Positions 7,679-59,395 of a stretch of 64,000 bases of DNA are shown piece after piece (position 1 is the stretch's first letter; each line of letters starts with the position of its first letter). The notes beneath the pieces were generated by a model. It had not been told where the DNA came from. It worked only from the letters and a program-made list of their open reading frames with translations, and did no database searches. Source of the DNA: Microthyrium microscopicum (taxonomy: Eukaryota); assembly GCA_010405405.1 (NCBI GenBank), contig MU004235.1, forward strand, positions 1,502,538 through 1,566,537. The letters run 5' to 3'. A program made the translations under genes and the position numbers.

Positions 7679-8180
7679 GCATGCTGAGGAGTTCTGCGAA
7701 AGGACGAAGCGCAGTGCTGTTGACTTTTACACGGTAACCGGTAGTAGTTGTGGAGAATCAATAAAGTACTCTCTTTGCAAACTTCCGATTTCTCAGCGAG
7801 TGGTTGGATTTCATTCAAGTACAGAGTCCATACAGCCTAAACGAATCATTCTCCGACCAAGATGCAACTGATCTGCAAAGATATGTCTGAATCGTGCTCG
7901 TTAGGCTGAAGAAAGTTGTTGGCCAATTAAACGATGCCAACCTGCAGGTTCCATTAGGGACTATCGGAATCTGCCTTGTCGCAGATTACGCCCATGCATA
8001 TGTCCCCGCCTTCCTCTGCCAGCTCGAATGGGTGAGGCTCAGCCTTCAGGTTCTGCTTGTAAAACATTTGGGTTGTCTTCGATCGGTGTCATCTTGTTTA
8101 ACACCACCAATTCAAGCTGAGCTTCCGTGCTCCAAATATCCTTATTGTCGCAAACGTTCTTCATATCTGCGCAACTAAAC

Positions 8181-13511: not shown

Positions 13512-13935
13512 TTCGATCGGTGTTTTCTGGCAAATTTATGAGTGGGGAGATTATGAACGTGCCGACTATGCTGGCGGGGAGTATGAAGCGGAATATGGTG
13601 AGTTATGGGGAGTGGAATGTTGACATGTACACGATTAAATGGCGATGCTGAGGCGTTGAAGTTAAGTTTAGGACGCCACCATTACAGGGGTCCTCGCTCT
13701 TGTCCCACGCTAGTTCGACCGTTCCATTTTTGGCAGCGACAGCTTGAGCATAGCCAATATTCTGATATACGTAGATGAGAAGGTGATATTGAGATCGTTT
13801 TGAATATGCAAGTGGTTTCCGGGTATTTGAACACTAGAAACTTGGTCTGAGTTTAGACATTGAAAACAGTTCTGATGCTCTGCAACGCTACAATCCATTA
13901 TCTAATTGCTATAGTTATACAGTGTCTGGCATCCA

Positions 13936-15426
13936 TTACAAGTACAATCCCTCTGGCTCCCCCTCACTCTTCGTTTTCAGCACACGTTCGCGAGCAGTAC
14001 GGAAATCTTCCATATTCACTCTCATTCTTCGTTCACGGAGAGCCATAAGACCTGCCTCTGAGCAGATGGCTTTGATATCAGCACCAGAGAGATCATCCTT
14101 TTGGTTGATGAATTCGTCGAGATCGACATCCTCGTTCAAGGACATCTTTGAGGTATGGAGAGTGAAGATCTTCTTCTTTGTGTTCTCTGTGAAATGAATT
14201 AGCATCAAGTTTGAAAGTAGTGAATGGTAAAGGCTTACGGTCTGGGTTCTCGAAGAGAATCTTTCGATCAATTCGACCAGGGCGGATCAAAGCTGGATCA
14301 AGAGTTTCAATCTTGTTAGTGGCCATGATGACCTTGACGTCACCACGGTCATCGAAACCATCGAGCTGATTGAGCAACTCCAACATAGTTCGCTGAATTT
14401 CACGTTCACCTCCTGATGTTGACTCGTATCGTTTTGTACCAATGGCATCAATCTCGTCGATGAACACAATGGAAGGCGCATGCTCAGCAGCAACCTGGAA
14501 GAGTTGGCGGACAAGTCGTGGACCATCACCAAGATACTTTTGGATAAGTTCACTTCCAACGATACGCAAGAAGGTGGCGCTGGTCGAGTTTGCTACGGCT
14601 TTGGCGAGCAAAGTTTTGCCGGTTCCTGGAGCACCATAAAGAATTACACCCTTCGGAGGCTTGATACCCATCTCCTCATACAACTCCGGATGAAGAAGAG
14701 GAAGTTCGACTGCCTCTCGCACCTCTTGAATCTGTTGCTCCAGACCTCCGATATCCGCATACGACTCTGTGGGAGCCTTGTCCAGTTTCATCACAGAAAC
14801 CGAAGGATCTGCATCATCCGTCAAAACACCCACAACAGCGACCGACTTGTGATGTAAGAGAATAGAAGCACCGGGTTCGAGGAGGTCTTTGTCAACAAAC
14901 GACATGATCGAGACGTAATACTCAGGACCAGTGGCGCTTGACACGATGGCGTGATCATCATCAATAAGTTCTTCCAGATTTCCAACGCCCATGGGACTTC
15001 CTCTTATGTCATCCACACGGCTGCGCTCATCTGCATTTCGATCGGCTGCTTCGCCATCGACGTTGGCGGCTGCCGGGGCTGTTTCCTTGGTCTTGGCTTT
15101 GCGGTATTGCTCTTGGTTTTCGACGTATTCTTCTTCGAGTAGAAGATGGTCGTGGATGCGCTGCATTCGCAAGTATCGTAGCTTGCAGCGAGCCGATGGA
15201 TAGACAGCTGGAAGCTTTGCGGAAGCACTTGGGCCGGCGGCCTTCTTTTTGCGACGACCGATGCGGGTGGTAGGCTGTGGCGGAGGTTCGTACTTTGGCT
15301 TATCTTTCTACAAGGGAGCGTTAGAATTGGCTGTAATGGACGAGAATTTGGACGATATACCTTGTCTTTCTTGTCCTTTCCATCACCAGCGCCTCCGCCG
15401 GGCATGTTGGATTGAGCGTTACCCAT
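13936..15426 (-). CDS. RPT2: 26S proteasome regulatory AAA-ATPase subunit 4 (Rpt2/PSMC1); 3 exons
   Basis: Myristoylation-type start MGNAQS, Walker A GAPGTGKT, Walker [24 protein letters not shown]-terminal PEGLYL. Introns 15308-15360 and 14187-14238. Confidence 0.97.
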
Positions 15427-15945: not shown

Positions 15946-16267
15946 GCCTGATCTTCCCCTCACCATATCTTGGTACCAAATCCCCAGCTCCGCCTTACGC
16001 TTCCCAGGCATTCTGCAGCCCAACCAGAACAGTCACACAAATCTGTAACTCGTGGAGACTTTTACACATCATATACTCCCATAGTTGCGGCTCGCAGTGT
16101 AACCTACATCGAACTAGGTCGTTGTCACACGCCATATTCCAACAGCTGCCTGCCCCGCTGCCTACAAGTCAACCCTTTCTTCGACATTGTACGCTCAACT
16201 TCCACCGCTCTGCCACCCATCAACTCTTATCAAAACTGCTGGACATCGCCACTTGTTAGCTTCCGCC

Positions 16268-17113
16268 ATGGCTTCAGCGCGGGCCAAGCGCATCAACAAG
16301 GAGATTCTCGAAGCTAAGAAGGACACAGACTCCAAGATTGAAATCGAAGTCCTTAGAGATGACCTGAACAATCTTCGAGGCCGCTTCCCGGGGCCTCCAG
16401 ATACCCCCTACGAAGGCGGCATATACAGTGTGGAGATCAAGATACCCTCCGAGTATCCATTTCGGCCGCCAAAGATGAAGTTCGAGACCAAGGTGTGGCA
16501 TCCAAATGTCAGCAGTGTCACCGTAAGTTCCCCCAAATTCCCAGGCTCTATTCTGAGTATATACTGACTGTGTCCATCAATCAGGGGGCAATCTGTCTCG
16601 ATACACTATCATCCGGCTGGTCCCCAGTCCTAACCGTCAAATCCGCCCTAATGATGCTCCAATCCCTCCTCGCCTCACCAGAACCCAAAGATCCCCAAGA
16701 CGCCGAAGTGGCCAGCATGATGATTAAGCATCCTAAGGAGTTTGAACACCGCGCGCGCGAGTGGGCGGTCCTACATGCAGGTGCTCCTCGGAAAGAGGAA
16801 GGCGAATCTAGTGGTGGTGCCGACCCGCATGTAGCGAAGAAGACGCAGCAGGCAAAGGAAAAGACGAAGCCAGATGCAGCACAGTATGTTAAGCCCCTTT
16901 TGCTGTTAATGGTGGAACGTGGACTGATTATTTTGCAGATACCGTGGCTACAACAAAGACCTTATTGACAGATTCTGCGCTATGGGCTTCGAGGTGCCGC
17001 AAGTCGTTGCCGCGTTTGAATATGTTGGTATTGATAAGATGGATGGGATGGACTATGAGCTCGAAGAAGCATACATGGGCGATATCACCGCCCGTCTGTT
17101 CGGTGAGCCGTGA
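16268..17113 (+). CDS. UBC1: Ubiquitin-conjugating enzyme E2 with C-terminal UBA domain (Ubc1/E2-25K); 3 exons
   Basis: MASARAKRINKEI...GPPDTPYEGG...YPFRPPKMKFETKVWHPNVSSVT|GAICLDTL (active-site Cys)...PEPKDPQDAEVA, then UBA YNKDLIDRFCAMGF. Introns 16523-16584 and 16884-16938. Confidence 0.96.
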
Positions 17114-32575: not shown

Positions 32576-33578
32576 ATGAAGCTTACTAAATTGCCACCTA
32601 GCCTATGGGCATTATTTACATTATCTTTATTCTCTTCTACAGCAATGGCATTTGGCAGCGCGAATAACAAAGTGTTGTTGAAAAATGTACAATCTCTTAC
32701 TCTACGCGATGGAAAGATGACGACGCATCGACGCGTGGGCGCAGTACCACAGGTATGGTAATATCTCAATTCGCGAAGCAGCAAGCTGATACATTTTCTA
32801 GCTCAAATGCGTGGGAGGCAATGGCTGCAAATACTATAAAGTTGACGTTATGCGTTGTCAAAACGCGGGCGTGGACTACTCAGAGCACGACATCCAATGG
32901 ACGTGTCAAGCCAGTGTCCCAGAAGAATTTAAACTTGGTTCCACGGACGTCAAATGTGAAGGCTACACCAACTCGAAAGATCCATTTATCTTGAAAGGCA
33001 GCTGTGGTGTCGAATATCGACTACTGCTCACCAGCAAAGGCATGGAGAAGTTTGGCGGCGGGAGAGCAGCGAAATCATCGTCTTCGTATGGTGAAGATTC
33101 TGGGAATTCCGAAAAGCCAAGCCAAGTTTTCGTCATTTTATTCTGGTCTGCCTTCGCAGCTATTATCTTCTTCATGCTCCGGTCCTGGTGGAGAAACCTT
33201 GGAAACCAACCCGCCCGCCCGCGCAACAACCAGCCTCGTCGACCGCCATGGGACGGATGGGGCGGTGGAGGACCAGGTTTCGGTGGTGGGGGACCAGATG
33301 ATCCACCACCGCCGTATTCGCCATTCCCTGGGAAGACACGTGCTGCTCAACAGCAACAGCAACAAGCTGGGTGGAGGCCTGGTTTCTGGTCTGGTATGGC
33401 GGGAGGAGCTGCAGCAGGTTATATGGCGGGTGGGCGAGGGACTAGACAAGAACAGGGACGATATCGGGACAACTCGTTCCTACGAAGACCAAATGATTAT
33501 AACGATGATCCAGGTGAGGGAAGCAGTTCTACAACTTTTCATCAGACGACTGGATTTGGAGGGACTAGTAATCGGTGA
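32576..33578 (+). CDS. SARAF/TMEM66-like protein (DUF1183); 2 exons
   Basis: Signal peptide, VLLKNVQSLTLRDGKMTTHRRVGAVPQ|LKCVGG, DVMRCQNAG...DIQWTCQA...FKLGSTDVKCEGY...DPFILKGSCGVEYRL, one TM helix, PPPPYS, C-terminal TGFGGTSNR. Intron 32753-32801. Confidence 0.92.
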
Positions 33579-37701: not shown

Positions 37702-40261
37702 ATGAAATTATGGGATGTTTTCAAGAGAGGAGTCATACGGAGTGGTTCGAATGACTTTTATCCAAAACGGCCGTCAGATCTCAAGGGCAAATCAAGGAAA
37801 TTGGTAGCGCATCCATTTTTGGAAGAAGAGCCTACTGTAAGAGAATGGCTCGAGACTTGTGTTCCAACGAGAAATGACTTGGGACAATATATCAGTAATC
37901 TTTTCCCGTCCTTAGGATGGATTCCAAGATACAACTCGGACTGGATGTTGGGAGATGCTATTGCTGGTACATATGCATCATGTCATGGGAGCTGAAGTTC
38001 AATATCTAATCCATGATAGGACTCACTGTCGGCATCGTTGTGATTCCCCAAGCCATGGCATACGCGCTGTTGGCAGGACTGACTCCTGAATATGGTTTAT
38101 ACACGTCATTCACAGGGGCTGTTGTCTACTGGATGTTTGGGACGTCCAAAGACATCGTAATTGGAGTGAGTAGCGTCCAGTGCATTGCGCGTGAAACTGG
38201 ATGCTGATCTCTGCTAGACCACCGCAATTGGCTCTCTGCTAGTTGGCGAAGTCGTAGCCACTGTTGAAGAGGCCAAGAATGGCTTATACTCCCATGAAGA
38301 AGCTGCAAAAACACTTTCACTCCTAGCGGGCTCAGTATTGCTAGTTTGTGGTTTTCTTCGACTAGGCTGGCTTATTGAGTTCATTCCATATGTTCCCATT
38401 TCCGCATTTGTCACAAGCGCCAGCATCACCATCATGACTACTCAATTTCCTGTGGTGCTAGGCATAACCGACATCAACAAGAGAGATTCTCCTTACCATG
38501 TGATACTCAATACGTTTAGGGGACTTGGTCGCATACAAACGGACGCCTACATCGGGCTCTCTTCGATCGTTCTTCTTTTCTTTCTCAAATCAGTATTCGA
38601 CCGCTTGGAAACCAGACAACCTGAAAGGAAAAGGATGTGGGCAACTCTCTCATCACTGAGAATGACATTTACAATGATTCTCTTTACCATGATTAGTCAA
38701 ATGGCACATTATGGCCTCCCCGAAGATCAAACCAGGTTCAGGATAGTAGGGAAGATTGAAAATGGTTAGTTCATAATCTCCTCGCATTTTCCACAGGAGC
38801 TGATATCATTTCAGGGTTCAAACATGCTGGAATACCAAACCTCGACCCAGATCTGATAGGAACCGTATTGCCTCAACTTCCGGCTATTGTTATGATCCTG
38901 ATTATCGAACACATTGCCATTGCTAAATCTTTTGGTCGAAAGTTTGGGTATACTGTAATCACATCTCAAGAAATGTGCGCCCAAGGATGTGCCAATATTT
39001 TCAGTCCATTCGTTGGAGGTTATGTTTGCACCGGGTCCTTCACTGCATCCGCTGTCGTGTCTAAATCTGGAGTTCGGACTCCTCTTGCTGGGCTATTCAG
39101 CGCATTCATATTGGTATTGGCACTATATGTGTTGCCATCTGTATTCTACTATATTCCGATGGCCGCTTTGGCTGGTTTGATCATTCATGCCGTAAGCAAT
39201 CTGGCCACTCCACCGAAAACTCTGTACAAATATTGGAAACTGTCACCATTCGAACTATTTATATGGACGGCTGGTGTAGTATCGGCATTTTTCAGCACTC
39301 TGGAAACTTCGATTTATTCCACAGTTGGCTTGTCTTTTCTTCTACTTCTGGTTCGGCATGCGCAAGCGCAAGGCCAATTTCTTGGTCAGGTACAGGTCTA
39401 CGAGGTCTCTTCAGATACAATGAATGGCGCCACTGGCCAACAGAATCAGCATGATCCTCACCCTGAATCCTTAGGACTCAATAGCCCGAGGGACACGTAC
39501 CTACCAATCGATTCTACAACAGGCTTAAGCCCCGATGTCCGTGTTCAATCTCCATACCCAGGCGTATTCATCTATCGCTTCACCGAAGGTTTCGACTACA
39601 TAAATCAAGCCCAAAACATCGATCATCTACTCTCCTACATTACCGCAAACACTCGCCACGCCAAGGTCTACGATGACTTTGACTCACAAGTAAGTCTCCT
39701 ACCCACCCCCAAACCTCCACTAACATGAACATATAGGCTCGCCTCTGGTGCGACCCACCCCTCTCCAATCATAGCGACTACAACGCCATAGCCCTCCCGG
39801 CTCTCCAAGCAGTCGTCCTAGACTTCTCCTCCGTCAACAACATCGACATCACCAGCATCCAAGGCCTCATCTCCGCACGCAACACTTTGGACCAACATGC
39901 CGCCGATACGATTCCATGGCACTTTGCTGGCGTATATAATCGCTGGACTCGTCGGGCCCTTGCTCTTGCTGGCTTTGGATATCCTACTGTGGATGAAGTG
40001 GACAGCTGGGAGCCGTCCTACACGCTTGCTGCTCCTCCAATACCGGCGGAAGAAAACAAGTATAGCCCGATCAGTCCAAGGACAGTGAGATCTGAGGAAG
40101 AAAATAGTGGTGTGGGCGATTTGGAGGGACTGAGGCCGATATATGGCACAAACCGACCGTTCTTTCACCCAGATCTCGTTGCTGCTGTGAGGGCAGCTGT
40201 GCATGGCGCAAAAAGGAGAGATGGATTGCCTACATCGGGCATATCATGGCTTCCCACCTGA
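37702..40261 (+). CDS. SulP/SLC26 sulfate permease with STAS domain; at least 5 exons
   Basis: LFPSLGWIPRYN..WMLGDAIAG|LTVGIVVIPQAMAYALLAGL.PEYGLYTSF, EHIAIAKSFG, SKSGVRTPLAG, PGVFIYRF and VVLDFSSVNNIDITSIQGL. Introns ~37967-38019, ~38167-38217, ~38764-38814, ~39690-39737. An upstream exon from 37439 is possible but I could not splice it in frame. Confidence 0.92.
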
Positions 40262-40876: not shown

Positions 40877-42649
40877 TCAGATTGACCAAGGACGAGAAAC
40901 CTTTGAAAACCGCTTCGAAGAGCCTATCCCGGAGTCTTCGTCCAGACGAGCACGAAGATCCGCAATCTCCTGGTCCTTGAGGGCCATTTGGAGCCGCGCA
41001 TCATTGACTTTGTCCTGAAGCTTCTCTGCCTGGCGCTTTCTCGCGAAGATGTCCTGATACAGCGTCTTCAAAGACCGGCGCTGAGCGGCGATCGTTTTCT
41101 CGTTGCGCTCGATCACCTTCTTGTCGCTGTTGCTTCCAAACTTGCGACGAAGAAATCGGACAACGCAGTTTCCTGCCAGTGCTTTGTCGCGCTCGGCTCG
41201 AGCAGCATCACGTTCTCTTCGAAGCATATCCGCCTCTACTCGAGCCTGATCGCGCTCTGATCGAAGCCGCTTGCTTTCACCCACCCATTGGCCATTGGCG
41301 CTTCGCACTTCATTCAAAGCTGCTCGAAGGTCTTCAGCCTCCTGCTCCTTCGCACGAAGGGTCTCTTCGACCGCATCAGGCAAGGGAGCGAGTTCGTTCC
41401 CGAAGCGCTCCTCGCAATCCGTCTTCTCGTGATACTTAGGAAAAGCGCGGACGCGCTCGGGACCTACCAAATGTAGAGACTGCACTCGGGGTAATGGACA
41501 TGGTGTGTCCCTACTTGCGGTTTTTCCCAGCGACAACGTGTAGGTGCTATCGAATTGCGGAGTGGAATCAGGCTTGCTGCCTCTCGCCCAGGCAGGAACT
41601 TGACCGTCTGGTGTCACGTTGTTATCTACCCAGGCCTGAGTCTTGCTTTTGCGAATAGTGGATGTTGGTGATTCCAGTTCATTGATATCGATACGCGCAG
41701 CTGACGCTGGAGAATCCCGCTGGTGCATGTCGACTAGCAGATCAGGCATCCCGTTTTCGCGTTGTAGACTCAGACGCTGTGCGTCTTCGGGGGAGTGGCG
41801 GTACACGGGCTGTCCTGGATAGGACGGCACGCGGGTTTGAGTGGCCATTGGCCGATTTGGTTGTCGCTGAGAAGCCTGCCGACTGGACTCCCCATGTTGG
41901 CGAGGTTGATGATGTTGACGGCTAGTAGCCCGCAAAGAAGCTTGCCGACTCAACCCACTATTCTGGCGCTGTTGCGGTTGGCGACTTCGTTGAGGATCCT
42001 GATCACTGGCGACTCGCAGAGATCGAGGCAGAGAGTCAAGCGCGCGGCGTAGCTGTCGAGCGTGTTGATTCATCCGCTCCTGCGCGGCAACGCCCACAGG
42101 CACGTCATTCTCATCGGCTCCTTGATCTACCTGTTGATGACGTGGCTGATCTGGGCTTTGGGTGCTCCGGTTCTCAGCCGGAGCTGCCGCAGGCATTTCA
42201 TTTTGCCCAACTCGTTCAACTGTGACCACTTCTCGTCGTGGAGCTTGTTGCTGTCCAGTTGCCTGTTTAGGGCATGGTTGTTGAGCGTTTTGTGTTGCAT
42301 AATCCTGAGCTGGAACTCCAGCAGACATTTCATTTTCGTCATTGTCCTCATAGATAATCACCGCTGGTTGCTGAACGCGTCGCTGCGGAGCTGGAGCTGG
42401 AGCTGGAGCTGGAGCTGGAGCTGGAGCATCGTCCTCTTCATCCTCGTCGTCCTCAGGCAGCGGTATTCCATAAAACGCGGACAAATCAGTCATGATCTGA
42501 GCTCGTGTCGCAGCGTCATTTCGAGGAGGAGCATAATGGGCGGCTTGCGTCGGCGCCCGCAAAGCATTGGCGCGTCTGCGCACATTGTCGACATGATCGC
42601 CAAAGTTACACCCGGCATCTTTCACCTTGACTTTGATGCGACGGAACAT
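40877..42649 (-). CDS. Orphan protein: Q/R/P-rich disordered N-region and C-terminal coiled coil
   Basis: 590 aa ORF with a PA repeat and Q-rich linker. Heptads from LRAKEQEAEDLRAALNEV to LKDQEIADLRARL. Ends EDSGIGSSKRFSKVSRPWSI. Confidence 0.72.
   Translation of the reverse strand: MFRRIKVKVKDAGCNFGDHVDNVRRRANALRAPTQAAHYAPPRNDAATRAQIMTDLSAFYGIPLPEDDEDEEDDAPAPAPAPAPAPAPQRRVQQPAVIIYEDNDENEMSAGVPAQDYATQNAQQPCPKQATGQQQAPRREVVTVERVGQNEMPAAAPAENRSTQSPDQPRHQQVDQGADENDVPVGVAAQERMNQHARQLRRALDSLPRSLRVASDQDPQRSRQPQQRQNSGLSRQASLRATSRQHHQPRQHGESSRQASQRQPNRPMATQTRVPSYPGQPVYRHSPEDAQRLSLQRENGMPDLLVDMHQRDSPASAARIDINELESPTSTIRKSKTQAWVDNNVTPDGQVPAWARGSKPDSTPQFDSTYTLSLGKTASRDTPCPLPRVQSLHLVGPERVRAFPKYHEKTDCEERFGNELAPLPDAVEETLRAKEQEAEDLRAALNEVRSANGQWVGESKRLRSERDQARVEADMLRRERDAARAERDKALAGNCVVRFLRRKFGSNSDKKVIERNEKTIAAQRRSLKTLYQDIFARKRQAEKLQDKVNDARLQMALKDQEIADLRARLDEDSGIGSSKRFSKVSRPWSI
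42387..42427. repeat. (GGAGCT)~7 coding microsatellite encoding (AP)n
   Basis: Tandem ggagct hexamers read directly from the sequence. Confidence 0.95.
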
Positions 42650-43879
42650 GCTTTCCTTGGGCTGGCCTAGACTCTATTTGGCATTAGCATTGCTCGCCTG
42701 AAGAAGTGATGAAGTTGCTGGATAAGATAACTTACGAGCTGGGCGACGCCGGAGTGGATGCCGTTGTTTGTGTTATTACGAGAATGCATTCTGAAGCGCA
42801 TGTCAGTACGTGCTTGGAGTATTGTTCCGGCGAGCTGACTTGATTGAAGAGAAGGAAGAATTAATTGTTGATTGTCCTTCAGGAAGAGATATGGAGCGAG
42901 CTCGAAAGCGCTGTGGACGAGAAAAGATGATGATAGGAGGCGATTGAGATCTAGTCGTGGTAGTAGGCTGGTTCTTTTGAAGATGGAGAAGGTTATCTAT
43001 TATGAAGAACAATTGATCAGAGCAAAGAAACTGATGGCGAGCGATTTGAAGGAGGCTACTAGAGGGTCTGGAGTCTGGAGTTGGTCGAAGGTGTTCTGAA
43101 TTTGGGTCCGATGGTAAACAAAGAATTGGAGGAGCAAGTTTACATAGAAATGGAGAAGGGCTTACATGGGCCCGGTACTCGACATCTTTCACTGCTCGAG
43201 AACGAGAACTAACCTCATTATGTCGAGTGGAAGGTTGCCAGCCAGAAGTGAAAATTAGCCCGGTCCGAACGTAAACAACAGCAGCTCTTGCCCTCGGAGC
43301 TCTTGCGAAGATGTCTTGATTGGTTGTGTAGTCTATATATGTGAAAGCATATCTACCTTACAGCATCTTTACAAGAATCCGCACGGAGCAAGGCTGAAGT
43401 GAAAGTCTACCGGGTCCAAGCGTGGATACAGGAGTAGTTTCCCACAAGGCCTTCACGCTTATGACTGGCTTGGCCGTGTATATGCATATCTCTATGAGGT
43501 GTTCCGTCAACCTGAAAGCATAGCAAGTCCCAAGATAAGTTGAGTGGATCGTTTGGTCCCGGGGTATGTCCTGTAGGGCAAAAAGCAACAGCCCCTATTT
43601 TTTGTTTACATATCTGCTCGCTAGCAGAGTTGATGGAACTGTAGGTCAATCAAGTTTGAAGAGCGTAGAAAGACAGATCACGGAGAACTGCCGCAGAGAT
43701 AGCTTCGGTCGTTCGTCAAAAAGCCCTGTCAATTGCTTGCTACTAGATGTTTGATTGCGTGTCCGCAGTCAGACGGTCAGTGTCAGTCTTGCTTTGCGCG
43801 CTCAAGCAATAGTTCTCAAATAACCTTGCTTTTGAGGAAAAGAATTTGAGGTTACTGAGCCAGGTTTATTTCAAATGGA

Positions 43880-44810
43880 CTAGTTAGGTTTATTGCCTGG
43901 CCCACTGTAGAATAGATGAAGAAACAGCTCTCTTCGACCTATGCGGTCGAAGAATATCCTCGCTTCATCGTAAGCTTTACAGCTGCCAAGCAGGCAACTG
44001 GTCATTGTCATCTCTCCAGGTTGCTGCTTACCACGTATCGCCATGCAGATATGGCTAGACTCCACGAAAACGGCAACACCTTGCGCCTGGAGTATGTCTG
44101 AAATCGCAAAGGCGATCTGATTAGTGAGCCTTCTCTGGAGCTGAAGCCGCTGTGACAAGGTCTCGACTATTTTGATAACCTTGGCCCGATCAATGTCTTG
44201 TAGCTTGGGGATGTAGCCAACGTGTATCTGGAACTGTTAGTTCAACATTGAATAAACAGGTGGTTCGCTAACATACCTTCCCAGAAAATGGTATGAGATG
44301 GTGCTCACAAATTGAAGAGAAATCAATCTCCGATTCTGTAAACATCTCTCTGTGGCTTACAGGCTTATACTCAGCTTCGCTGGTGGGTATGAAGGAGTCT
44401 AAGCTCTCTTCATATCCTCTTGTAAAGTATAGAATTGACTCGGCATAACGCATTGGCGTATGGAGCAGACCTTGTCGACTTGGGTCCTCACCTATACATT
44501 CTAGGATAGTTTTCACAGCGCCTGACAGCTTGGCGAGCTGATCATCTCGTTCTTCTCTAGAGGCTTTGTTTCTCCCTAGAGTTTTCTGACCTTGCATTTA
44601 TGAGTATCCAGTCTCCCTTCCAGGTAGAAACTCACTTTGCCAGGTGAAGTCATTGTCATCGTTATCAGGCTTACGCATGCAAGAGATCTGAATGTAGCTA
44701 ACATCCGGTGATGATTTTGTAGAGCTGGGTACTTTGGGATCCTCTGGTTTGTTCTCATGAATCTCGCTATGTTCAGACACGGAAGAGTTTGCGCTCTCAT
44801 CCGGTGCCAT
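43880..44810 (-). CDS. Divergent GTP cyclohydrolase I (FolE/T-fold) paralog; 3 exons
   Basis: Introns 44591-44635 (gtgagt..aag) and 44228-44276 (gtatgt..ctaac..cag) give LSGAVKTILECIGEDPSRQGLLHTPMRYA...SICEHHLIPFSGK|IHVGYIP...RLQLQRRLTNQIA...GVAVFVESSHICMAIRG. The Zn ligands (CEHH and HIC) are retained. Confidence 0.88.
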
Positions 44811-45399
44811 GGTGGTTATGGTGGAATTACTACGATTTGTCAGATGGTAAGCACTTGCAACCCTTGAGATAACAACTGACAGTTTGTCGGTGGCGAGTTT
44901 GCAAGTATTGGAAATTCTTCCTGTATTGCGGACAGCTTTTTCTAAACAACAAATGATTTGGTTTTTGGTTTTGTGGCGATTCAAAGAACGGAATTTCCGA
45001 TGCTTCAAATATTTACATCATTGCGTCAAACGGGTGTCTTAAATAAAAGCCACTCTAAACGATGTATGTGATTCAGCTGGTAAGGCATCAGATCCATCGT
45101 ACAACTGGGAGCAGTGAATTCAGCGTATTGCCCACTTTGCTGCAAGAGAATTCACTGGGTCTTCTTTTTGCATTTCACAATTGGCATAAACAATTTGTCT
45201 GTCTCAACACTGTTCGGAAGCTAGTGTTTGTGTCTGATCAGAAATGGACGAAATAAGATGCGTCCGCCAGCCACTTCCATAATCCTCATCAGCGTCGTTT
45301 GATGACAGAGTGCTTTACTCCCAGTTGAATCCGTGGCTAGCAGGTAGGACACTTCAATCAGAAGTTTCTTCTGTCTACCTAAGAGGTAGGTAAGCATAG

Positions 45400-48300
45400 A
45401 TGGCGACCCTCGAGGCCCTTAAGTCGGCCCTTCAACACAAAGCTCAGGCTACGGAGACAGTAAACGCGCAGGCATTATCTGAAGCACAATACAGCGCCGG
45501 CTTTGAAGTCTTCGTGCAGGACTCTGGATGGTTGACTTACAGAAACTTCATCATTCCTCAGCTCTCACAGTCGATGGCCTCTCTTCTTAGCTCTCGTAAG
45601 AAAATTTCGGTATTAGAGATTGGACCCGGTCCGAAGAGCGTGCTGGGATATCTTCCGGAGGATCTGAGGAAGAATGTAAGATGCCCGTGTCAGAAATTCT
45701 GGGCCCCATTCGAAACAGCAAAACCTGTGGTCCCCGGCAGTATATCCGACGGCATCCATTGTCATGTTCTAACAAATTCCAGGTCAAAAAATACACAGCT
45801 TTTGAGCCCAACGGTTTGTATGCTGTAACTCTAGAAGAATGGCTTGGCTATGCTTCCGGCCAAACGTCCCCACTACCGAACCTAGATCATCCGCCCAATA
45901 TCCAACAGGTTCCTTTCGAAAAGAACGATAATGATGAAAAGTATGACATCGTCTGATTCTGCCACAGCATGTACGGCATGAAGCCTAAACGCAAGTTCAT
46001 CGAACAGGCATTGGAAATGCTTACTGAGGAGCCACAACAAGGAATGGTGGTGATATTTCATCGTGAAGTCGACTTGCAACTTGAAGGCTTGGTATGTCAT
46101 CGAACAGCTTCATATCCTACCGGAGTCGTCAGTGTGCGAGATGAAGATAAAGTGATCGATGAATTCGCTCCGTTTGTGGCGGGATACATCCTACAGAATG
46201 GCGACTCTGGTAAGGCCGTCCGGAAGATATGGCGGGAGGAGTGCCGCGCCTTAGGTCGTCACGAAGATGCACCCCCGAACCATCTTCTTTTCAGTGACCC
46301 AAACATCATGGTGGCCTTTAATCCACATGCTACCAAGCTTTCGGAGCTGACGGCTACTGTGCCACTATATGACGGAAAAAAGTCGATCAAAAATCCAGAA
46401 GCTCGTCACTGCAAGCCCGCTGCGATCGTTAGACCGACAGAGGTGCAACATGTCCAGCAATGTGTCAAGTGGGCTATAAAGCACGATACTGGATTGACAA
46501 TTATTGGTGGTGGTCACAGCGGACACTGCCTCTGGCCTAATGTGGTGGCGGTTGACATGAGTGCTTTTAATCAACTTCACATATTGGATTTGGCGAAAGA
46601 CGAGGTGGCGATCTTGCCCGATGCCAAATATTTGGTGGTCGCCGGAGCTGGCTGCACAACAGGCGACATCATCCGCAATACTATGCAATTTGGCGTGACA
46701 GTTCCGCTAGGCGCTCGTCCAAGTGTTGGAGCAGGATTGTGGCTTCAAGGCGGCATTGGGCACTTATATCAGTCTCATGGTCTTGCGTGCGATGCTATTG
46801 TGGGCGCCGTTATGGTGAGCGTTGATTCTGGCCAAGTCCTCCACATCGGCTATGTACCTCGTGAGCACCGACCGCCTGGCTCCGTTCGCCCCGAGAATGA
46901 ACGTGATCTATTATGGGCCATCAAAGGTGCTGGGACCAATTTTGGCATCGTGGTCACTGTAATCTTCAAAACAGATGCGGCTGCGACCTACGCGATTCGA
47001 AATTGGGCTCGTCCGTTGGAGGAGTACGTCGGAGACGACATCGACCACTTCAGTCAGTCCGCAACCTGGGTTCCTCAACAATGCTCCATGGACGGGTATC
47101 TCTACATGGATGCTGGCAAATTGCATCTTGGCATTAGCCTGATCGAATATTCCACGACCAACCTGGACTTCGAAGAAAGTGAGAGGTACGCCGGGAACAT
47201 GAGCATCAGTTGGAAGTCAAAACCTAATCTCAAGATTGCTGATGGCTTGAAGATGTTTGAAAGTGAGATGCATATGACATCGTTGCACGGCGGGCACGCA
47301 AGCGGCAAGACTTCCTCCTTCAAGCGATGTCTATTTCTAGATAACATCGGTCACCACAGTCAGCACGACACCTCTCGCCTTTTAGCAGAAGCGATGCGGA
47401 GCAGTCCCACACAGCTTTGCTACATTCATCTGCTGAAAGGTGGTGTTCGACCGCGAAATATGGGTGACATTAAGAATACCACTACTGCTTTCGGCAATCG
47501 TATCCTCTGGGATTTCGCCTGTATCATAACGGGTGTTTGGCCTCGTGAGCAAGACGGCACCGAAATTGCACAACGAACTGTGCGGTGGGTGTATAAAGTC
47601 GCTCAAACCTTGCTACCGGCAAGTCGAGGAGTTTATAGTGCCGATCTTGGCCCAGATCCTAGAGATGTGGAGTTGGCGGTAAAGGCTTTTGGTCCAAACC
47701 GGCCTCGCCTGATCGATCTCAAAGATGCCTTAGACCCGCACAATGTCTTGGCCTATGCATGTCCATTTCCAAAGACTTCGATGAGACAGAGACTCATAGT
47801 CCTTGTCACAGGAGAAAGTGGCGTTGGCAAGGACTACTGTGCGAACGCCTGGGCCTCTGATCTCATCAAGAGTGGGTTCACGGCGCGCGTGGCTAGCATC
47901 AGCGATGCTATAAAGCGGCAATATGCAAAGACCACAGGCTCCGATCTGAGTCGCTTGCTTTCGGATCGTGGCTACAAAGAGCAGCACCGATTAGCGCTTA
48001 CAGAATTCTTTCAGAAACAAGTTCTAAAACGACCAGAGCTGCCGGCCGAGAACTTCCTAGACGTAGTGTCCAAATATGGGGAAGTAGATGTCCTCTTCAT
48101 AACCGGAATGAGAGACGACGCACCGGTCGCAACCTTCTCACATCTAATACCTGAAAGCAAGGTTGTTGACTATCGCATCAAATGTAATAGAGCAACGCGG
48201 CGGAGTCGTGGGGTCCACGTTGAGAGTGATGGGCGCGACAAAGATATTGACAAAACCGAGTCAGGCTTAATGCTCCCAAAATACCTCCCCACTCTCATCT

Positions 48301-48980
48301 ACATCAACGATGAGACAAGAAACATGGGCATATATCCGCCGGCCAAAGCTTTTCTATACATGTTCCTCCACGAGAAGCTGCAGCGACTAGGCCGTATGGT
48401 GAATTCAATGTCCGATTTTCCACGACCAGGCGTTGAGTTTCGTCATGTGCTTGGTATCGCAGAGGCGCCGGGTGGCTTGAATCTGTGCGCGTCTTTACTC
48501 GAAGACCTATTCGGAAGTACAGGGGACTGGACAAAGGTGGACGCAATTGTGAGCTGTGAGGCCGGCGGCTTTGTCTTTGCTTCGACATTAGCTTCGCGGC
48601 TTTCAGACCGTGCAGGGGATGACAAGACCGTGGTGCTAATCCGTGAAGCGGGCAAAATCCCGCCGCCCGCGATTTCTGTTGCTAAGCCGGCATCCAATAT
48701 CTCGTCTAGGGGAATCGACAGTTCCAATGAGAAACGGATTGAAATAGGACGAGACGTGATCCCAAGGGGCGCGTCAGTGGTGGTCGTGGACGACGTACTT
48801 GCCACTGGGAGAACGCTGTGTGCAGTTCTGGAGCTACTAGGCAAAGTTGGCATCGACGCGGAGAAGATCAGTGTCATGGTTGTGGCGGAGTTTCCAGTTC
48901 ATCGTGGTCGGGAACTGTTGCGCCAACGTGGGTTTGGTAAAGTCAATGTCCAGAGCCTCCTGGTCTTTGGCGGTGAGTAG
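45400..48980 (+). CDS. Multidomain fusion: SAM methyltransferase-like + BBE-type FAD oxidoreductase + phosphomevalonate-kinase-like P-loop domain + APRT-like phosphoribosyltransferase; in-frame TGA at 45954-45956
   Basis: Methyltransferase VLEIGPGP..YTAFEPN..YDIV*FCHSMY (intron 45676-45782). FAD domain PAAIVRP..IIGGGHS..VGAGLWLQGGIG..DLLWAIKGAGTNFGIV..LDPHNVL. Kinase GESGVGKD..ISDAIKRQYA..LLSDRGYKEQHR. PRTase DFPRPGVEFR..EAGGFVFA..VVVVDDVLATGRTL. Confidence 0.85.
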
Positions 48981-49740
48981 GAACGTTTCAAGCAGGCCGC
49001 ATACTCTTGATAATCATTAATCGCTATGACAACTAAGTAAGTAGCCGGAGTCTGAATTGATCCTACCATTTTGAACGTCCTTGTGCCTACTTGCCCCAAA
49101 ATATAAATAGATTGAGCAACCTGCTGCAATCGTGAACACGTTGACTTTTTAGAATTTTTGTCTCAACTTCTTGCTCTAATTCCGGCTAATACTAAGGAGC
49201 TTGTCCGTAGCAGAGTAAGCTGAATTGCAACATTGAAGCTTAATCAAGATGAAGTTTGTTCCAGCGCTCAACTACTCATATTCCATGTGGCGCCGCTTTG
49301 TAAGTCGATCTTAGCTTGTGCAAAAGCTCAAGGAGAGTAAGTTTTGCTCCTTGTTCTGACGTGAATCGCGACTAAAGAAAACATGAAGTCGGTAATTTGA
49401 TCACCCCGAACCGAGCGTCCTTCGGCATGCCGACCGGAAAGGGGCTCACGCCTATGCTACCCGAGACTACAACTGCATGTCCAAACATAAACTCAACAAC
49501 AAGCCAGATGTCCTGTCGCAAACCATAATTCATATTGAATAGCTGTTGGTGAAGAGACGAGAAGTATATCAATGTCCCAAGAGAAATAACTGTGGAGAAC
49601 TGTAAGAGCTTGGGAAGAACTGCGCATAGCGGCCTCAAGGATCAGACCACGCCTTCGCTGCGGACGCCAGGACTCATACATATTCTTACAACTGGAGGAG
49701 TTTTGAGTACGCATTACAAACTTTCGGCTGCCAATCCAAG

Positions 49741-51303
49741 ATGAGAGAACGAGTCACCTACATTCTGCGGAATCCAACAGGCGTTTTCGACCCAAAACAA
49801 CTGGAAGTAAAAAAAGACAGCTTCGCCGTGGACGGTCTCGATGCCATCAAAGAACACCAAATCACCCTCGGATTCCAAGAAATAACAGCCGAGATATGGC
49901 GCGTACTACGCAATTGCCATGAACTTCATGTCCGCTGGTCAACCGCTCAGGCCTACGAGACGGTATCCCCATACGTCTCACGCGTAACGCCAGGCCTACA
50001 CGTATCATACACACCGCTAGAAGGCAAATCCGCAAAACGACTCTGTACATTAATCCGCCAAACCTTCGGTCAACGCATAAAATGCAACGACGTCACAACA
50101 GCGTTCACCACACCACCCATTCTCTCTGAACGATTTGCCGCAGTCGCAGCCCGCCAACTGTATTACTATGTCCCATCGCTCCAAGACTTTAGCATATATC
50201 TCCAACAAACCATATGTGGAGTCGATCGTATCTCATGCCGGATCCGCGCACATGATTTGGAAAGAGCAGACACTTTAGACATAGACTATGATGCCGTCTC
50301 GCAATCCCTGATCATCAAAGCGCTCTGGACAACCGCCACCAGCCAAGACGACAAATGGTACGAAACACACCTAAAAGGTTCTGACGAGCACGATACCCTC
50401 GAAATAGGCGTCCTGGTAAACGAAGTGCCCGACGAAGAAGAAACAATCCGCTTCTCCGGCGTCCTCACCAGAATCGGTCAAGATGATAAACCAGGTACGT
50501 GCCATTCCCCATTCCCCTTCTGCCCCATCCCCGAATCTCCAACCTTCACCCAACTGACATCCCTAGCACCAACCCTCTTCTCCACCCCCTCCCGCCACCA
50601 CCCCTCCAAGCAATCCTACACAGCAAGCTTCCGTACGCCCACCGGCTTGCACCCAACCCTGCAACTCTCCTTCCCACCCTTGACACCACCCTCCGAAACA
50701 TGCGCACTGCACGCCTACGTCACCCTCCCCAGCACCCTCTTCCTAGATCGCTACGCCTTCACCGATCCTCTCTTCCTATCCAGCCACCATTTAGCCGCAA
50801 TGCACGCGCTCTCCGGTGCAACGGATTTGGAGGCCCCGGAATGGACTGTTGAGACATGGGGATCTGCCGCCCTCTTCGAATTGGCGCCTCCAGATAATGG
50901 AAGCGGGTTCAACGCCACAATCCCCCTCCATCTGCGCTACTTACCACCGTTAAACGCATCAACCCTCCTCCATCCAGTTGCATGGCCGTCCGTTTTCTGG
51001 GCCTGCACAGCGGAAATGGGAAGCAAGTACAGTTCGAGCCCATTCGATCGGCGAGATTTGGGATATGATGGATTATTCGGTAGTAACACGCGTTTTGAGC
51101 ACTTGACTCCTGCAGCGCATGCCGTGAGTACATTGAATATTCCCGTGCTGGATGTCCGGAGGACGAGTAAAGTGGAGAGCGGGACGAGTGCGGTGATCCT
51201 CATTGGGACGCTTTGGGTTTGTTGGGTGCTTATGAGGGGTGTGTGGAGAGGTGGTGTTGGAGGGAGTGGTGGTATCCAAGGGCAGAAGAAGAAGGGTCAG
51301 TAA
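49741..51303 (+). CDS. PBN1: PBN1/PIG-X, GPI mannosyltransferase I stabilising subunit
   Basis: MRERVTY start, ELHVRW..PYVSRVTPGLHVSYTP, PTGLHPTL, CALHAYVTLPSTLFLDRY, TDLEAPEW, IPLHLRY, C-terminal TM helix and KKKGQ. Probable in-frame intron at 50495-50566. Confidence 0.9.
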   Translation: MRERVTYILRNPTGVFDPKQLEVKKDSFAVDGLDAIKEHQITLGFQEITAEIWRVLRNCHELHVRWSTAQAYETVSPYVSRVTPGLHVSYTPLEGKSAKRLCTLIRQTFGQRIKCNDVTTAFTTPPILSERFAAVAARQLYYYVPSLQDFSIYLQQTICGVDRISCRIRAHDLERADTLDIDYDAVSQSLIIKALWTTATSQDDKWYETHLKGSDEHDTLEIGVLVNEVPDEEETIRFSGVLTRIGQDDKPGTCHSPFPFCPIPESPTFTQLTSLAPTLFSTPSRHHPSKQSYTASFRTPTGLHPTLQLSFPPLTPPSETCALHAYVTLPSTLFLDRYAFTDPLFLSSHHLAAMHALSGATDLEAPEWTVETWGSAALFELAPPDNGSGFNATIPLHLRYLPPLNASTLLHPVAWPSVFWACTAEMGSKYSSSPFDRRDLGYDGLFGSNTRFEHLTPAAHAVSTLNIPVLDVRRTSKVESGTSAVILIGTLWVCWVLMRGVWRGGVGGSGGIQGQKKKGQ

Positions 51304-54538: not shown

Positions 54539-55053
54539 CATGCATCAGTCTTATGTATGCCCCATCGGAAATACCTTTCTCCGTCCATCTATCTGGTAAA
54601 GATGAATTGGCACGTTTCTGTAAAGTATACATAACGTCTTATTTGCTGCGTCAAACTACCAGGTGCTTTACGTCCATCAGATACGTAAATCTCTCCACTT
54701 CATATCGAATACGCTGAGAATCAAAGCATATTTTACTTTAAAAGGTGCGATGGGAGACATCTTCGGTGATGGGAGCGCGCGCTAATTGTCCATCGCCTAT
54801 TTTCAGCCTCAAAGTAGGTTCAACCAATCAATGGTCTTCATCAAAATTCAACTTTTGAAACAAACCAGCTGCCTTGTTGCCTGTTTCCATCATCTCAACT
54901 TCCAACTGACAACTTGAGCTTGCAATTCACAACCAGCACTTTAACATAAAACTTGCAATCCACCGAGCGTGTATCCAACAGCAAAACCATCATCTGGCCT
55001 TTGGTACTCTCCAAATACGCATTTTCAAGCGTCCAGAAGAGACGATATCCAAT

Positions 55054-56268
55054 ATGACAGACATTCAAGCTCCGCCAGCTCAGGCGCATTCAGCAGCCAA
55101 CGACTCTATGTCCGCCGATGAAATCGCTTTGTATGATCGTCAAATCCGTCTGTGGGGAGTCCAGGCCCAAGAGTATATTCGCAAGGCCAATGTTCTCCTG
55201 ATATCAATGAAGGCTCTAGCCAATGAAGTAGCCAAGAATCTAGTTCTAGCCGGCATCAACACCCTCACTATCATCGATCACGAACTAGTCACTGAAGAGG
55301 ACCTCGGGGCCGAATTCTTCGTCTCGATGGAAGATGTTGGAAAAAACGTAAGCCAATTGACCATCTATATCGACTATCACTGACAGCCATTTCAGCGAGC
55401 AATGGCAGCGGCTCCACGCATCTCAGAATTGAATCCACGTGTAAAGGTGTTTGCAGACAACGACTCCATCGCCGACAAACACGAATCCTACGTCAAGGAC
55501 TTCGATGTCATCATAGCCACGGATCTAAACTTCAAAACCATGACTGTCCTCAACGCTGCCTGTCGTCTAGCCAACAAACCCTTCTACGCTGCCGGCTCCC
55601 ACGGGTTCTATGGCTTCATCTTCGCGGACCTGATTTCCCACGATTTTATCCACGAAGAAACAGACTCACATAGCACCCGCATCGCCAATACCAAGGAGTC
55701 CGCAACCCGTACCGTCATCAACGTGGAAGTCACCAAAGAAGGCAAAAGCACCCGCCAAATCGTAACACGCCGCGAAATGTACTCGCCCATGATATTGGCC
55801 AACACTTCACCCCTCCCACCAACATTCCGGCGCAATCGGCTCGCAAAAGTTACACCTCTCCTCTCCTGTCTGCGCGCCCTCTGGGATTTCGAAGAACATT
55901 CTGAAGCCCACCACGTCCCCCAACCCAACAGCGCATCCGATATCGCTAAATTTACCTCCCTCGCGACTGAAAAGCATACTTTGCTGAACCTTCCCCGCGA
56001 GACGCTCAAGGCTGAGTTCCTTCGGAAGTTCTTGCAGAATGTGGGCTCCCAGATCGCACCAGTCACTGCCATGTTGGGTGGTTTACTAGGCCAGGACGTG
56101 ATTAACGTCATTGGAAAGCGCGAACAGCCGATCCAGAACTTCTGTCTGTTCAACGGAGACGATTACGATGTGCCTGTGTTTGCACTTCATCCAGTGAACT
56201 TTGAGAAAGAGGGTGAGAAGAGCACGAAATTAGAGACGGCGGTGGAGGGGATGGTTGTTGTTGATTAA
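55054..56268 (+). CDS. AOS1: SUMO-activating enzyme E1 subunit 1 (Aos1/Rad31); 2 exons
   Basis: SADEIALYDRQIRLWGVQAQ, LANEVAKNLVLAGI, AAAPRISELNPRV, APVTAMLGGLLGQDVINV..EQPIQNF. Intron 55348-55395. Confidence 0.94.
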
Positions 56269-57719: not shown

Positions 57720-58702
57720 TCATGACCCACTATCACTACCACTTTGATTGGAATCGTCTCGGCGATGACTTCTCAACTTCCTCACATATAGATCGTTTGG
57801 TGTCGCCCGGACTTGTGTAAGAATTCCAGATGACTCGATCATCTCGTCAAAAGCATAGAGATCACTATTCTTTGTAATCCTTGATTGTCTTGGCCCCATC
57901 AGATCCACTCGCCAATGTGGCTCCGTCCACGCATTATCAAAGTCAACCAACAAGCCGTTCTTGTAATTTCGTTCTATGATATCTCTTTGAAACACAAGAG
58001 ACCCTCTCAGCTTCTTCAAGTCTTCTAGCATCGTCTTTGGCTCCTTGATAGATATCTCAGTGTTCTCGAATCTTTTTACCAATGCTCGGAAAGGCAGTCT
58101 TTTCTTCACGGGGTGTTTCTTGTTCTCAATTGATCTGTTCCAAAATGTGATTCCATACTTTTCGGCGAGGATTTCTTCGTATGGATCTGCTGCTACGGCC
58201 ATGTAGCCATAGCAAGGTACCGCAAGTTCCTTCGCCGTCGGTCTCTTCGTTTGACCTGTCCCCTTTGATTGACTACGTTTTGCGTGCTTTTCTTCAGCTT
58301 CTTTTATTCTTCCGTAAGCCCTGCACTCAGCGAAAAAAGGGTCAGAATGAAAAGTGAGTTTTTCACCAGACACGCGCTTTCTCCAAGTAACTCCTATGCT
58401 CTGTTGAGCGAATTCTAGATCGAAGAACTTGAACTATGATTTCGAGTCAGCTTTTATTCTAGAACAGTACCGCGATTCCTGTTAGAACTAACGATCTTGA
58501 GGGCATATATTTTTCTGTTGATGATCACTTTGAAAACATAAGCGCCATGGCGTTGAGGTGAGGTGGAGGTCTCATCCTCAAGGTGACTGAGGATATCCAA
58601 AAACTCAATCTTTCTATTCCGGTCTTTGAACGGTTGTAATCGGGGGCCTGTGCATGATATCGGAGGTAACGGTTCATTGCTTCTAAGATCATATTGAGCC
58701 AT
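57720..58702 (-). CDS. Protein-kinase-like fold protein of the fungal 'FTA2-domain' type; 2 exons
   Basis: Intron 58434-58492 (gttagt..gctgac..tag) joins GAYVFKVIINRKIYALKI|FKFFD..DPFFAECRAYGRI..AVPCYGY..PFRALVK..FQRDIIERNY..LLVDFDNAWTEPH. Confidence 0.82.
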
Positions 58703-59395
58703 GGAGTAGATGTATGGACAATACTAAAGTGTCAATTCTGGTGGCATATACCTTGTTCGAGTATTGCTTTCCATTGAAGATACATCCTATTTTGAGCCCA
58801 TTGACCCGATAGCCGGAAGTTGTCTTCTTTGGGAGCACTGCAGCTTGTGTTACGATAAGATCGGTAGCTCAAAGCTCCATTGGGCTAAAAAAGAGAGAAC
58901 TGTATGCATTACCCGCATAAGTCACCCCTGAAAGCATCGGAATAATTTGAAGTCAGGTCCAACTTTTATTTCTACTGGGAAGCAAGCTTTGAGAAACTGT
59001 AGGTCGTAAATTGATATCTCAATCATACAATTCGCAAATTCGAACCTATTAGACAAATTTATGATATGCTATTTGATTTATCTGTTGATGAGTTATCTCA
59101 TGAAATAGTAAGAAACGTACCTGTTAGGTGATCCTTCGATGCAGGATCCAACCTGCTTCTCTCCAAATGGAGAACATGCCCCCGGCTCTGTTGCTGATGA
59201 CTCAAGCCAGTACTCGCTTATCTATCTGCTAAAGTCCTTACCTATTCGCGTCAGGCGATATACTGGTATTAGAAGGCATAACTTGAAGTCTATGATTAGT
59301 ACTGCGGCTGGCTATTAGATCTTTCATACCTGTGTAGCTACGAGATACATCTGAACTCTCAATTGCCTGTCGAATACAGCTGTTGGAGACCAGCT

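Follow-up and report, generated by a model that had tools for sequence, protein, structure and literature searches.

The closest described relatives of the locus treated here are biosynthetic systems that include a GTP cyclohydrolase I (GCH I), and fungal pterins that may match the predicted activities of its second gene. The bacterial toyocamycin and tubercidin clusters combine a GCH I with a phosphoribosyl pyrophosphate (PRPP)-dependent transferase acting on a GTP-derived base, and they need QueD, QueE, and QueC. The asperopterins are N-methylated, ring-oxidized, and ribosylated pterins. Asperopterins A and B, an isoxanthopterin glycoside and its aglycone, come from Aspergillus oryzae (PMC6208954). 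In the penilumamide (plm) cluster of Aspergillus flavipes, PlmC is a duplicated GCH I within a fungal pterin cluster (PMC10549243). The subject of this study is a head-to-head gene pair of the ascomycete Microthyrium microscopicum, a Dothideomycete, in a stretch of 64,000 nucleotides (assembly GCA_010405405.1, contig MU004235.1, positions 1,502,538 to 1,566,537 of the forward strand; hereafter the window). The pair consists of a GCH I-like gene and a gene encoding a fusion of methyltransferase, flavin adenine dinucleotide (FAD)-dependent oxidase, kinase, and phosphoribosyltransferase domains (the fusion).

The plm cluster is similar in that its own GCH I duplicate feeds a pterin/lumazine product and in that it also has methyltransferases and an FAD-dependent oxidoreductase; unlike the pair, it has three non-ribosomal peptide synthetase (NRPS) genes, a duplicated dihydroneopterin aldolase, a deaminase, and separate tailoring genes (PMC10549243). 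The pair comes with neither NRPS nor aldolase, its putative tailoring activities are fused, and it contributes a kinase and a phosphoribosyltransferase, both lacking in plm. Canonical GCH I (FolE/FOL2; PDB 1fb1, 1is7, 1a8r, 37xd) belongs to the same fold family as the window product P0121, with 40–53% identity. P0121 differs from it by an arginine in place of the glutamate of the QERLT motif, by RAK in place of LSK, and by a 3-residue insertion and a 15-residue tail. Oxidases of the berberine bridge enzyme (BBE)-like and vanillyl-alcohol oxidase (VAO) families, such as EncM and 6-hydroxy-D-nicotine oxidase, have the FAD_binding_4 domain and a GGGHS motif in common with the fusion, in which this domain is embedded in a four-domain protein of 1160 aa.

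Our reading, to which we assign a probability of about 50%, is that the pair is this fungus's copy of an accessory two-gene module that is distributed patchily across Pezizomycotina and that is disabled or being remodelled in this genome. The head-to-head arrangement given in the first-pass annotation was confirmed, with GCH I at 43880..44810, the fusion at 45400..48980, and 589 bp between the two ATG codons. The features of the pair are as follows (window coordinates; X5 denotes the one with RNA-like contigs among four public runs aligned to the region).

43880..44810, minus strand: GCH I-like gene with three exons; the 278-aa product is the stored protein P0121, which carries the name GTP cyclohydrolase I of M. 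microscopicum in its source
44810-44636, 44590-44277, and 44227-43883, minus strand: coding exons of GCH I, with the stop codon at 43880-43882 (sequence and Pfam)
44591-44635, minus strand: GCH I intron 1 (joint in the X5 contigs)
44228..44276, minus strand: GCH I intron 2, 49 nt, between ...PFSGK and IHVGYIP (X5 joint 44227->44277, CT..AC ends)
44830-44880, minus strand: GCH I leader intron (X5 joint 44829->44881, CT..AC)
44811..45399, no strand: spacer between the two start codons, 589 bp (sequence)
45376..45537, minus strand: second leader intron, 162 nt (X5 joint 45375->45538, CT..AC ends)
45400..48980, plus strand: four-domain fusion gene (open reading frames (ORFs); tblastn with the intact ortholog P0005)
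45400-45675 and 45783-48980, plus strand: fusion exons 1 and 2 (ORFs and sequence)
45676..45782, plus strand: fusion intron, 107 nt, GTAAGA...CTAAC...CAG (alignment; not seen spliced)
45400..46400 (end approximate), plus strand: predicted class I S-adenosylmethionine (SAM) methyltransferase domain, VLEIGPGPKS, cut by a TGA codon
46416..46847, plus strand: FAD_binding_4 domain of a BBE/VAO-type oxidase, GGGHSGHC (Pfam, E 2.4e-14)
47805..48149, plus strand: P-loop kinase domain of the phosphomevalonate kinase family, GESGVGKDY (PF04275, E 1.8e-22)
48456..48887, plus strand: type I phosphoribosyltransferase domain, adenine phosphoribosyltransferase (APRT)-like, VVVVDDVLATGRTL (PF00156, E 3.4e-19)

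Linkage of the two genes was examined in metagenome contigs, which were scanned with an ortholog alignment. This yielded 77 fusion loci, flanked on either side by at most 10 kb, in which GCH I was located by tblastn. GCH I was found in the flanks of 22 of these loci, in four arrangements relative to the fusion:

Upstream and divergent like the window pair, with 607-1112 bp to the fusion start: 15 loci
Upstream on the same strand, 1.2-2.7 kb away: L002, L012, L019, L024
Upstream on the same strand, 242 bp away: L077
Downstream and convergent, 211 bp away: L047, L048

At L024, DDE transposase ORFs (L024:4100-5164 and L024:6740-7384) flank GCH I, one of them lying between GCH I and the fusion. 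When the 77 loci and the window were clustered at 95% identity, 53 lineages resulted. A linked GCH I was present in 17 of them, the window and one mixed group included, and the flanks were too short to tell in 22. The two genes are thus linked in other fungi, where the first-pass annotation had named a lack of linkage as the result that would speak against its proposal. In addition, Lepidopterella palustris probably carries its GCH I (P0271) and its fusion (P0005) on one contig, both entries listing a longest contig of 9,974 bp.

None of the other window genes recurred in any of the 77 loci, nor did any other neighbor of the fusion recur beyond close relatives. The search for further conserved partners that had been proposed at first pass therefore returned GCH I and no additional partner across lineages. 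As GCH I is the sole neighbor recurring across lineages, the pair has survived where all other synteny is gone, and the physical linkage of GCH I and the fusion is conserved beyond background synteny.

A tree of 57 GCH I sequences, calculated with a quick method, placed nine linked copies and five named GCH I proteins of 255-271 aa in a clade with support 99. These named proteins come from two classes, as confirmed for the Dothideomycetes Lepidopterella, Lasiodiplodia, and Didymosphaeria and the Leotiomycetes Cadophora and Drepanopeziza. The clade of short linked sequences is separate from the GCH I of 325-357 aa of four other Dothideomycetes. In a set with fewer long branches the window GCH I fell inside it (support 96.5), and the window protein and the Lepidopterella copy have PFSGKIHVGYIP and TPMRYA in common. 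This pattern fits an accessory GCH I lineage travelling with the fusion. For calling the window GCH I a paralog, as was done at first pass, it is the phylogeny alone that provides an argument.

The four-domain architecture of the fusion was recovered: three domains by Pfam, and the methyltransferase through the ortholog, the distant locus L073, and a structure model. With P0005 as tblastn query, the two fusion exons covered residues 1-94 and 92-1157. The window ORFs matched FAD_binding_4, P-mevalo_kinase, and Pribosyltran, and Pfam did not detect a methyltransferase domain on the window pieces. The intact ortholog P0005 gave a weak match to Methyltransf_23 (E 0.0011), and within the LEIGPG motif E, G, P, and G were invariant across the N-termini of 26 loci (alignment A3). 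The ortholog N-terminus, when modelled (predicted local distance difference test score 71.3), adopts the Rossmann-like fold of class I SAM methyltransferases and returned 184 PDB matches at E <= 0.001. The best solved match was histamine N-methyltransferase (template modelling score 0.55-0.61), followed by other small-molecule N-methyltransferases. From model and motif together, the N-terminal ~300 residues of the fusion are predicted to be a class I SAM-dependent small-molecule methyltransferase domain.

The FAD_binding_4 domain scored 53.6 bits against a cut-off of 26.4, with the residues of GGGHS.HC invariant in alignment A2, and the BBE C-terminal motif in P0005 reached 20.0 against the Pfam cut-off of 20.6. 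An ortholog profile retrieved EncM, 6-hydroxy-D-nicotine oxidase, PpBBE-like 1, and carbohydrate oxidases from the PDB (E 1e-17 to 1e-13). The kinase domain scored 79.9 bits with PF04275 (cut-off 33.8), and P0005 missed the corresponding equivalog TIGR01223 (34.5 vs. 188.15). The phosphoribosyltransferase domain, in which the PRPP motif is present, matched adenine phosphoribosyltransferases in the PDB by profile (E 3e-21); all APRT equivalog cut-offs were missed in P0005, the best being NF002636 with 88.3 vs. 125. In the orthologs, cofactor-binding motifs are invariant in all four domains.

Intact reading frames of the fusion family encode ~1150-1165 aa. The homolog search returned proteins of 554-1762 aa, most of the matches listed having 1050-1180 aa, and the same three Pfam domains were found in 120 of the 120 matches listed. 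Among these matches the named carriers are lichen-forming and other filamentous ascomycetes. In the matches listed for the two genes, the fusion and the short GCH I appear only sporadically among the named genera. A Protein Atlas look-up of P0005 returned only clusters of its own family. Locus L073 (75-3917) contains a single ORF of 1281 aa, 26% identical, with the same four domains in the same order and a Methyltransf_25 match of 29.3 against a cut-off of 27; its contig is too short to show neighbors. The same architecture at 26% identity means that this domain order extends well beyond the main family.

The fusion tree consists of a crown of close sequences (end branches mostly 0.02-0.25), in which ascomycete classes are intermixed, and of long basal lineages. 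With support values that are mostly weak, the crown could reflect extreme constraint or between-class transfer.

PF01227 (GTP_cyclohydroI) matched both large exons, and the whole of P0121 scored 172.7 bits against a cut-off of 27, compared with 244.9 for the linked intact ortholog P0271. With the NCBIfam folE equivalog TIGR00063, P0121 scored 179.2 against 181.6, marginally short by 2.4 bits. The CEHH and SH.CM motifs, which we take to be the zinc-binding/catalytic Cys/His motifs, are kept (SHICM), with C153, E154, H155, H156, H222, and C224 in invariant columns. R195 replaces the conserved glutamate of QERLT (E195R), a residue that is Glu in all 29 other aligned sequences and in every linked copy that covers the site. 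We presume this residue to be the guanine-binding Glu152 of the E. coli enzyme, with which its position is consistent in the PDB chain ranges; a literature search found no paper on the role of Glu152.

Other losses in the window GCH I are G176D and S178A (GLSK; RAK in place of LSK), R182K, and V230K, next to the extra 3-residue insertion and the 15-residue tail. Of 67 columns without variation across 25 fungal sequences, the protein retains 49. In a comparison set of ten sequences, among them a chytrid GCH I, four cluster representatives, and the divergent linked copies L035 and L032, 0.78-0.97 of these columns are retained (chytrid 0.95, L035 0.80, L032 0.91). No relative more than 49% identical was found among 1.84 billion cluster representatives, and the end branch of the window GCH I was 2.98-4.15 in two trees, against a median of 0.26-0.36. 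By branch length, the divergence rate of the window GCH I is thus estimated at over ten times that of its relatives. Outside the window, all linked GCH I copies keep canonical QERLT, CEHH, and SHxCM.

Transcripts and the reading frame were checked in contigs of the four public runs (X1, X4, X5, and X6, from three studies) over positions 43800-49100. X1 and X4 are possibly from the source sample, X5 is from a second study, and X6 is from a third study with a different organism label. No run is on record as RNA; X5 was treated as such because its contigs skip introns. Both coding introns of GCH I are spliced out in X5 contigs, which makes it a transcribed and spliced gene. At the position of intron 2, the GCH I tblastn match of other loci also splits in two (e.g., L004 and L024).

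Contig record 9 of X5 runs from 45378 across the whole spacer into GCH I as a minus-strand 5' leader. The second leader intron (45376-45537) overlaps the start codon and exon 1 of the fusion, so that antisense RNA covers the 5' end of that gene; its joint 45375->45538 is weaker than the other X5 joints, the shorter side having just 27 letters. The GCH I RNA leader is very long, has two introns, and begins within or beyond fusion exon 1 (44811-45567, minus strand). Consequently, the two genes overlap in antisense and there is no plain shared divergent promoter. Of the shared promoter of ~590 bp described at first pass, the spacing stands and the simple promoter does not, as spliced minus-strand RNA crosses all of the spacer. 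No 8-10-mer was common to more than 5 of 12 divergent spacers, that is, no conserved promoter element emerged from them.

Within the predicted methyltransferase domain the reading frame of the fusion is interrupted by an in-frame TGA at 45954-45956, where orthologs read Leu (YDIV-L-FCHSMYGM). The domains proposed at first pass were recovered, and this interruption had been overlooked. TGA was found in contigs of all four runs, with no other letter at the site, and the X6 record 45781-46058 showed zero differences from the window. Its presence in four runs from three studies argues that the stop is not an assembly error. The fusion is 59-63% identical to its orthologs, which average 81% column identity (26 sequences, several classes), and it retains 323 of 358 residues invariant in 22 orthologs (0.90). 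Retention is the same in the methyltransferase part upstream of the TGA (76 of 84, 0.90) and lies at 0.87-0.94 in the oxidase, kinase, and transferase domains. Other divergent fusion lineages retain 0.82-0.96, the intact ones among them at least 0.88. As this retention resembles that of intact lineages, the TGA is, judged by residue conservation, a recent nonsense codon in a gene previously under normal constraint. Repeat-induced point mutation as its origin was considered and rejected by reasoning: the change of any Leu codon to TGA needs a transversion, and that process produces transitions only.

X5 record 11 spans 45538-49006 without a joint and retains the plus-strand intron of 107 nt. 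No spliced sense RNA of the fusion was seen in X5 contigs, which can miss rare forms. Alignment of the fusion ortholog gives one uninterrupted segment at 58 of the 77 loci, and at the remaining 19 there is never a break at query residues 92-94. The intron therefore appears specific to the window lineage and, with its canonical GT, CTAAC, and AG, resembles a newly gained intron. Five of 35 other loci likewise have stops in the fusion frame, namely L017, L024, L046, L059, and L064 (codons 815, 53, 47, 976, and 138); they may represent decayed copies, lineage-specific introns, or assembly errors.

Taken as a module, intact versions of the pair would act as follows. GCH I would open GTP toward a dihydroneopterin-type pterin. 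The fusion would then methylate a ring nitrogen, oxidize the ring, attach ribose phosphate, and phosphorylate further, on a pterin or a purine relative, and housekeeping folate enzymes and phosphatases would assist. The reverse order is equally open, in that the fusion could build a modified guanine nucleotide whose ring is subsequently opened by GCH I. In both orders, a modified pterin or a purine nucleotide-like small molecule would result. In the window this module would be decaying: a nonsense codon lies in the fusion methyltransferase and no correct splicing was seen, and GCH I appears altered yet is transcribed and spliced.

The remainder of the window contains the following recognized genes.

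3267-3743: DJ-1/PfpI
8121-8585: PigL_N-like
12093-13535: cyclin
13939-15307: proteasome AAA ATPase
16118-16965: ubiquitin-conjugating enzyme
32802-33575: SARAF
38010-39725: sulfate permease
49630-51300: PIG-X/PBN1
54910-56265: ThiF-type enzyme
57723-58723: kinetochore FTA2

No polyketide synthase (PKS), NRPS, terpene synthase, or other pterin/folate gene was present among the genes recognized in the window. An ORF of 598 aa on the minus strand (40880-42673) is without a Pfam match; it features an (Ala-Pro)n run, is rich in Gln/Arg in places, and by eye resembles a coiled coil in its C-terminal part. X5 record 9, the GCH I transcript, continues for ~1.4 kb past 43800 toward this ORF.

Several points weigh against an accessory module. 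At least 14 lineages lack GCH I despite 3-9.5 kb of upstream sequence, and one group of at least 95% identity mixes linked (L004, L019) and unlinked (L014, L034) loci. The linked GCH I copies do not form one clade: that of L018 clusters with Aspergillus and Penicillium sequences, and those of L027, L056, L057, and L068 fall together with a Hypoxylon, a Claussenomyces, and other representatives. The trees are 'quick' or FastTree calculations in which the window rows are very long branches. The RNA nature of X5 is an automated guess, and its assembled contigs can miss rare spliced forms. The proposed chemistry is deduced from domain families, all of which stay short of equivalog cut-offs.

Since the linked copies are not one clade, the neighbor in some lineages may simply be the housekeeping FOL2. 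Extended to the pair as a whole, this gives the strongest competing explanation, which we consider unlikely: the linked GCH I would be FOL2 throughout, the fusion a loosely related or unrelated enzyme of primary metabolism (e.g., purine salvage), and the divergent pair would persist via shared regulatory DNA. The canonical QERLT, CEHH, and SHxCM of the linked copies outside the window agree with this, as do the grouping by class of L018, L027, L056, L057, and L068, the housekeeping character of the window neighbors (sulfate permease, PIG-X, ThiF-type enzyme, and proteasome ATPase), and the strong conservation of the fusion (81% mean column identity over the 26 sequences). However, the short GCH I clade unites Dothideomycetes with Leotiomycetes in conflict with the class tree, and both it and the fusion are sporadic among the named genera in the matches listed. 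Stops in the fusion frame of five of 35 loci and of the window would be unexpected for an essential gene. Moreover, if the window GCH I were the sole copy, the Glu to Arg replacement together with 18 lost residues out of the 67 invariant ones would presumably leave the fungus without folate synthesis.

A further explanation, which we regard as more doubtful, is that the window pair is functional but changed, with a GCH I-like enzyme acting on a new substrate, its presumed guanine-reading residue being replaced, and a 1003-aa oxidase-kinase-transferase starting from the Met after the TGA and lacking an intact methyltransferase domain. That Met codon directly follows the stop, 1007 open codons lie downstream of it, and the stored protein P0001 (1003 aa, 100% identical) begins exactly there. 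GCH I is transcribed, correctly spliced, and keeps CEHH and SHICM, and the three downstream domains of the fusion have kept their invariant residues (0.87-0.94). Yet the methyltransferase upstream of the TGA is kept equally well (76/84), which fits a very recent stop and not a long-standing domain loss. The only splicing seen at the fusion was in antisense, across its 5' end. The 18 losses at invariant sites of GCH I look more like relaxed constraint than like a targeted change of specificity.

The idea of an accessory module can be carried further, to a self-contained, hitherto unrecognized two-gene pathway of filamentous ascomycetes from GTP to an N-methylated, ring-oxidized, ribosylated pterin, possibly an isoxanthopterin glycoside or nucleotide of the asperopterin type. 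In that case the pair may be passed on from class to class in one piece, given that different classes are mixed on very short branches in the fusion tree, and the window would show the module decaying. We judge this full version improbable. The methyl, oxo, and ribosyl groups of the asperopterins would match three of the four fusion domains by chemical analogy, which leaves the role of the kinase unexplained. To our knowledge, there is no precedent for O-ribosylation by an APRT-like domain. No asperopterin biosynthetic genes turned up in the literature search.

A cluster for a 7-deazapurine nucleoside of the toyocamycin or tubercidin kind, the analogy drawn in the first-pass annotation, is close to refuted. 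GCH I and a phosphoribosyltransferase co-occur here, as in the bacterial clusters, but the defining QueD/PTPS, QueE (radical SAM), and QueC were absent: no corresponding Pfam domain was found in window ORFs (over its full length for those of at least 110 aa, and from 33 to 60 kb for those of 62-109 aa), and none recurred beside the fusion in the 77 loci. The accompanying remark that no QueD, QueE, or QueC homologs are visible was borne out by these scans. Chance adjacency of two unrelated genes in this genome, to which the unrelated housekeeping genes of the remaining neighborhood would be congenial, is refuted by the synteny counts, the same adjacency being found in 16 other lineages and probably one named genome with no other synteny surviving.

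No description of the pair or of the fusion's function was found in a full-text search, outside the scope of which lie ~1.7 million PubMed Central articles and most subscription journals. Two candidate papers (PMC9200314 and PMC10512309) were set aside, as they concern GTP cyclohydrolase II only. What would be new, if the pair is an accessory module, is a pterin/purine cluster that brings its own GCH I, lacks a core synthase, and combines every tailoring step in a single fused protein. Standard cluster-mining tools search for PKS, NRPS, or terpene cores and would pass over a module whose two genes encode a 'housekeeping' GCH I and one multi-domain enzyme.

For M. microscopicum itself, the window would document the decay of such a module, in which GCH I drifted first and the nonsense codon in the fusion came later. 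This genome is a poor place to seek the product, its own pair looking compromised by that codon in the fusion and by the changed active site of GCH I. If the pair is a pathway, its intact versions would represent a novel biosynthesis of small molecules derived from pterins or purines, in lichen-forming and other ascomycetes, and could assign genes to orphan fungal pteridines, and the fusion would be a natural example of four consecutive tailoring activities on a single chain.

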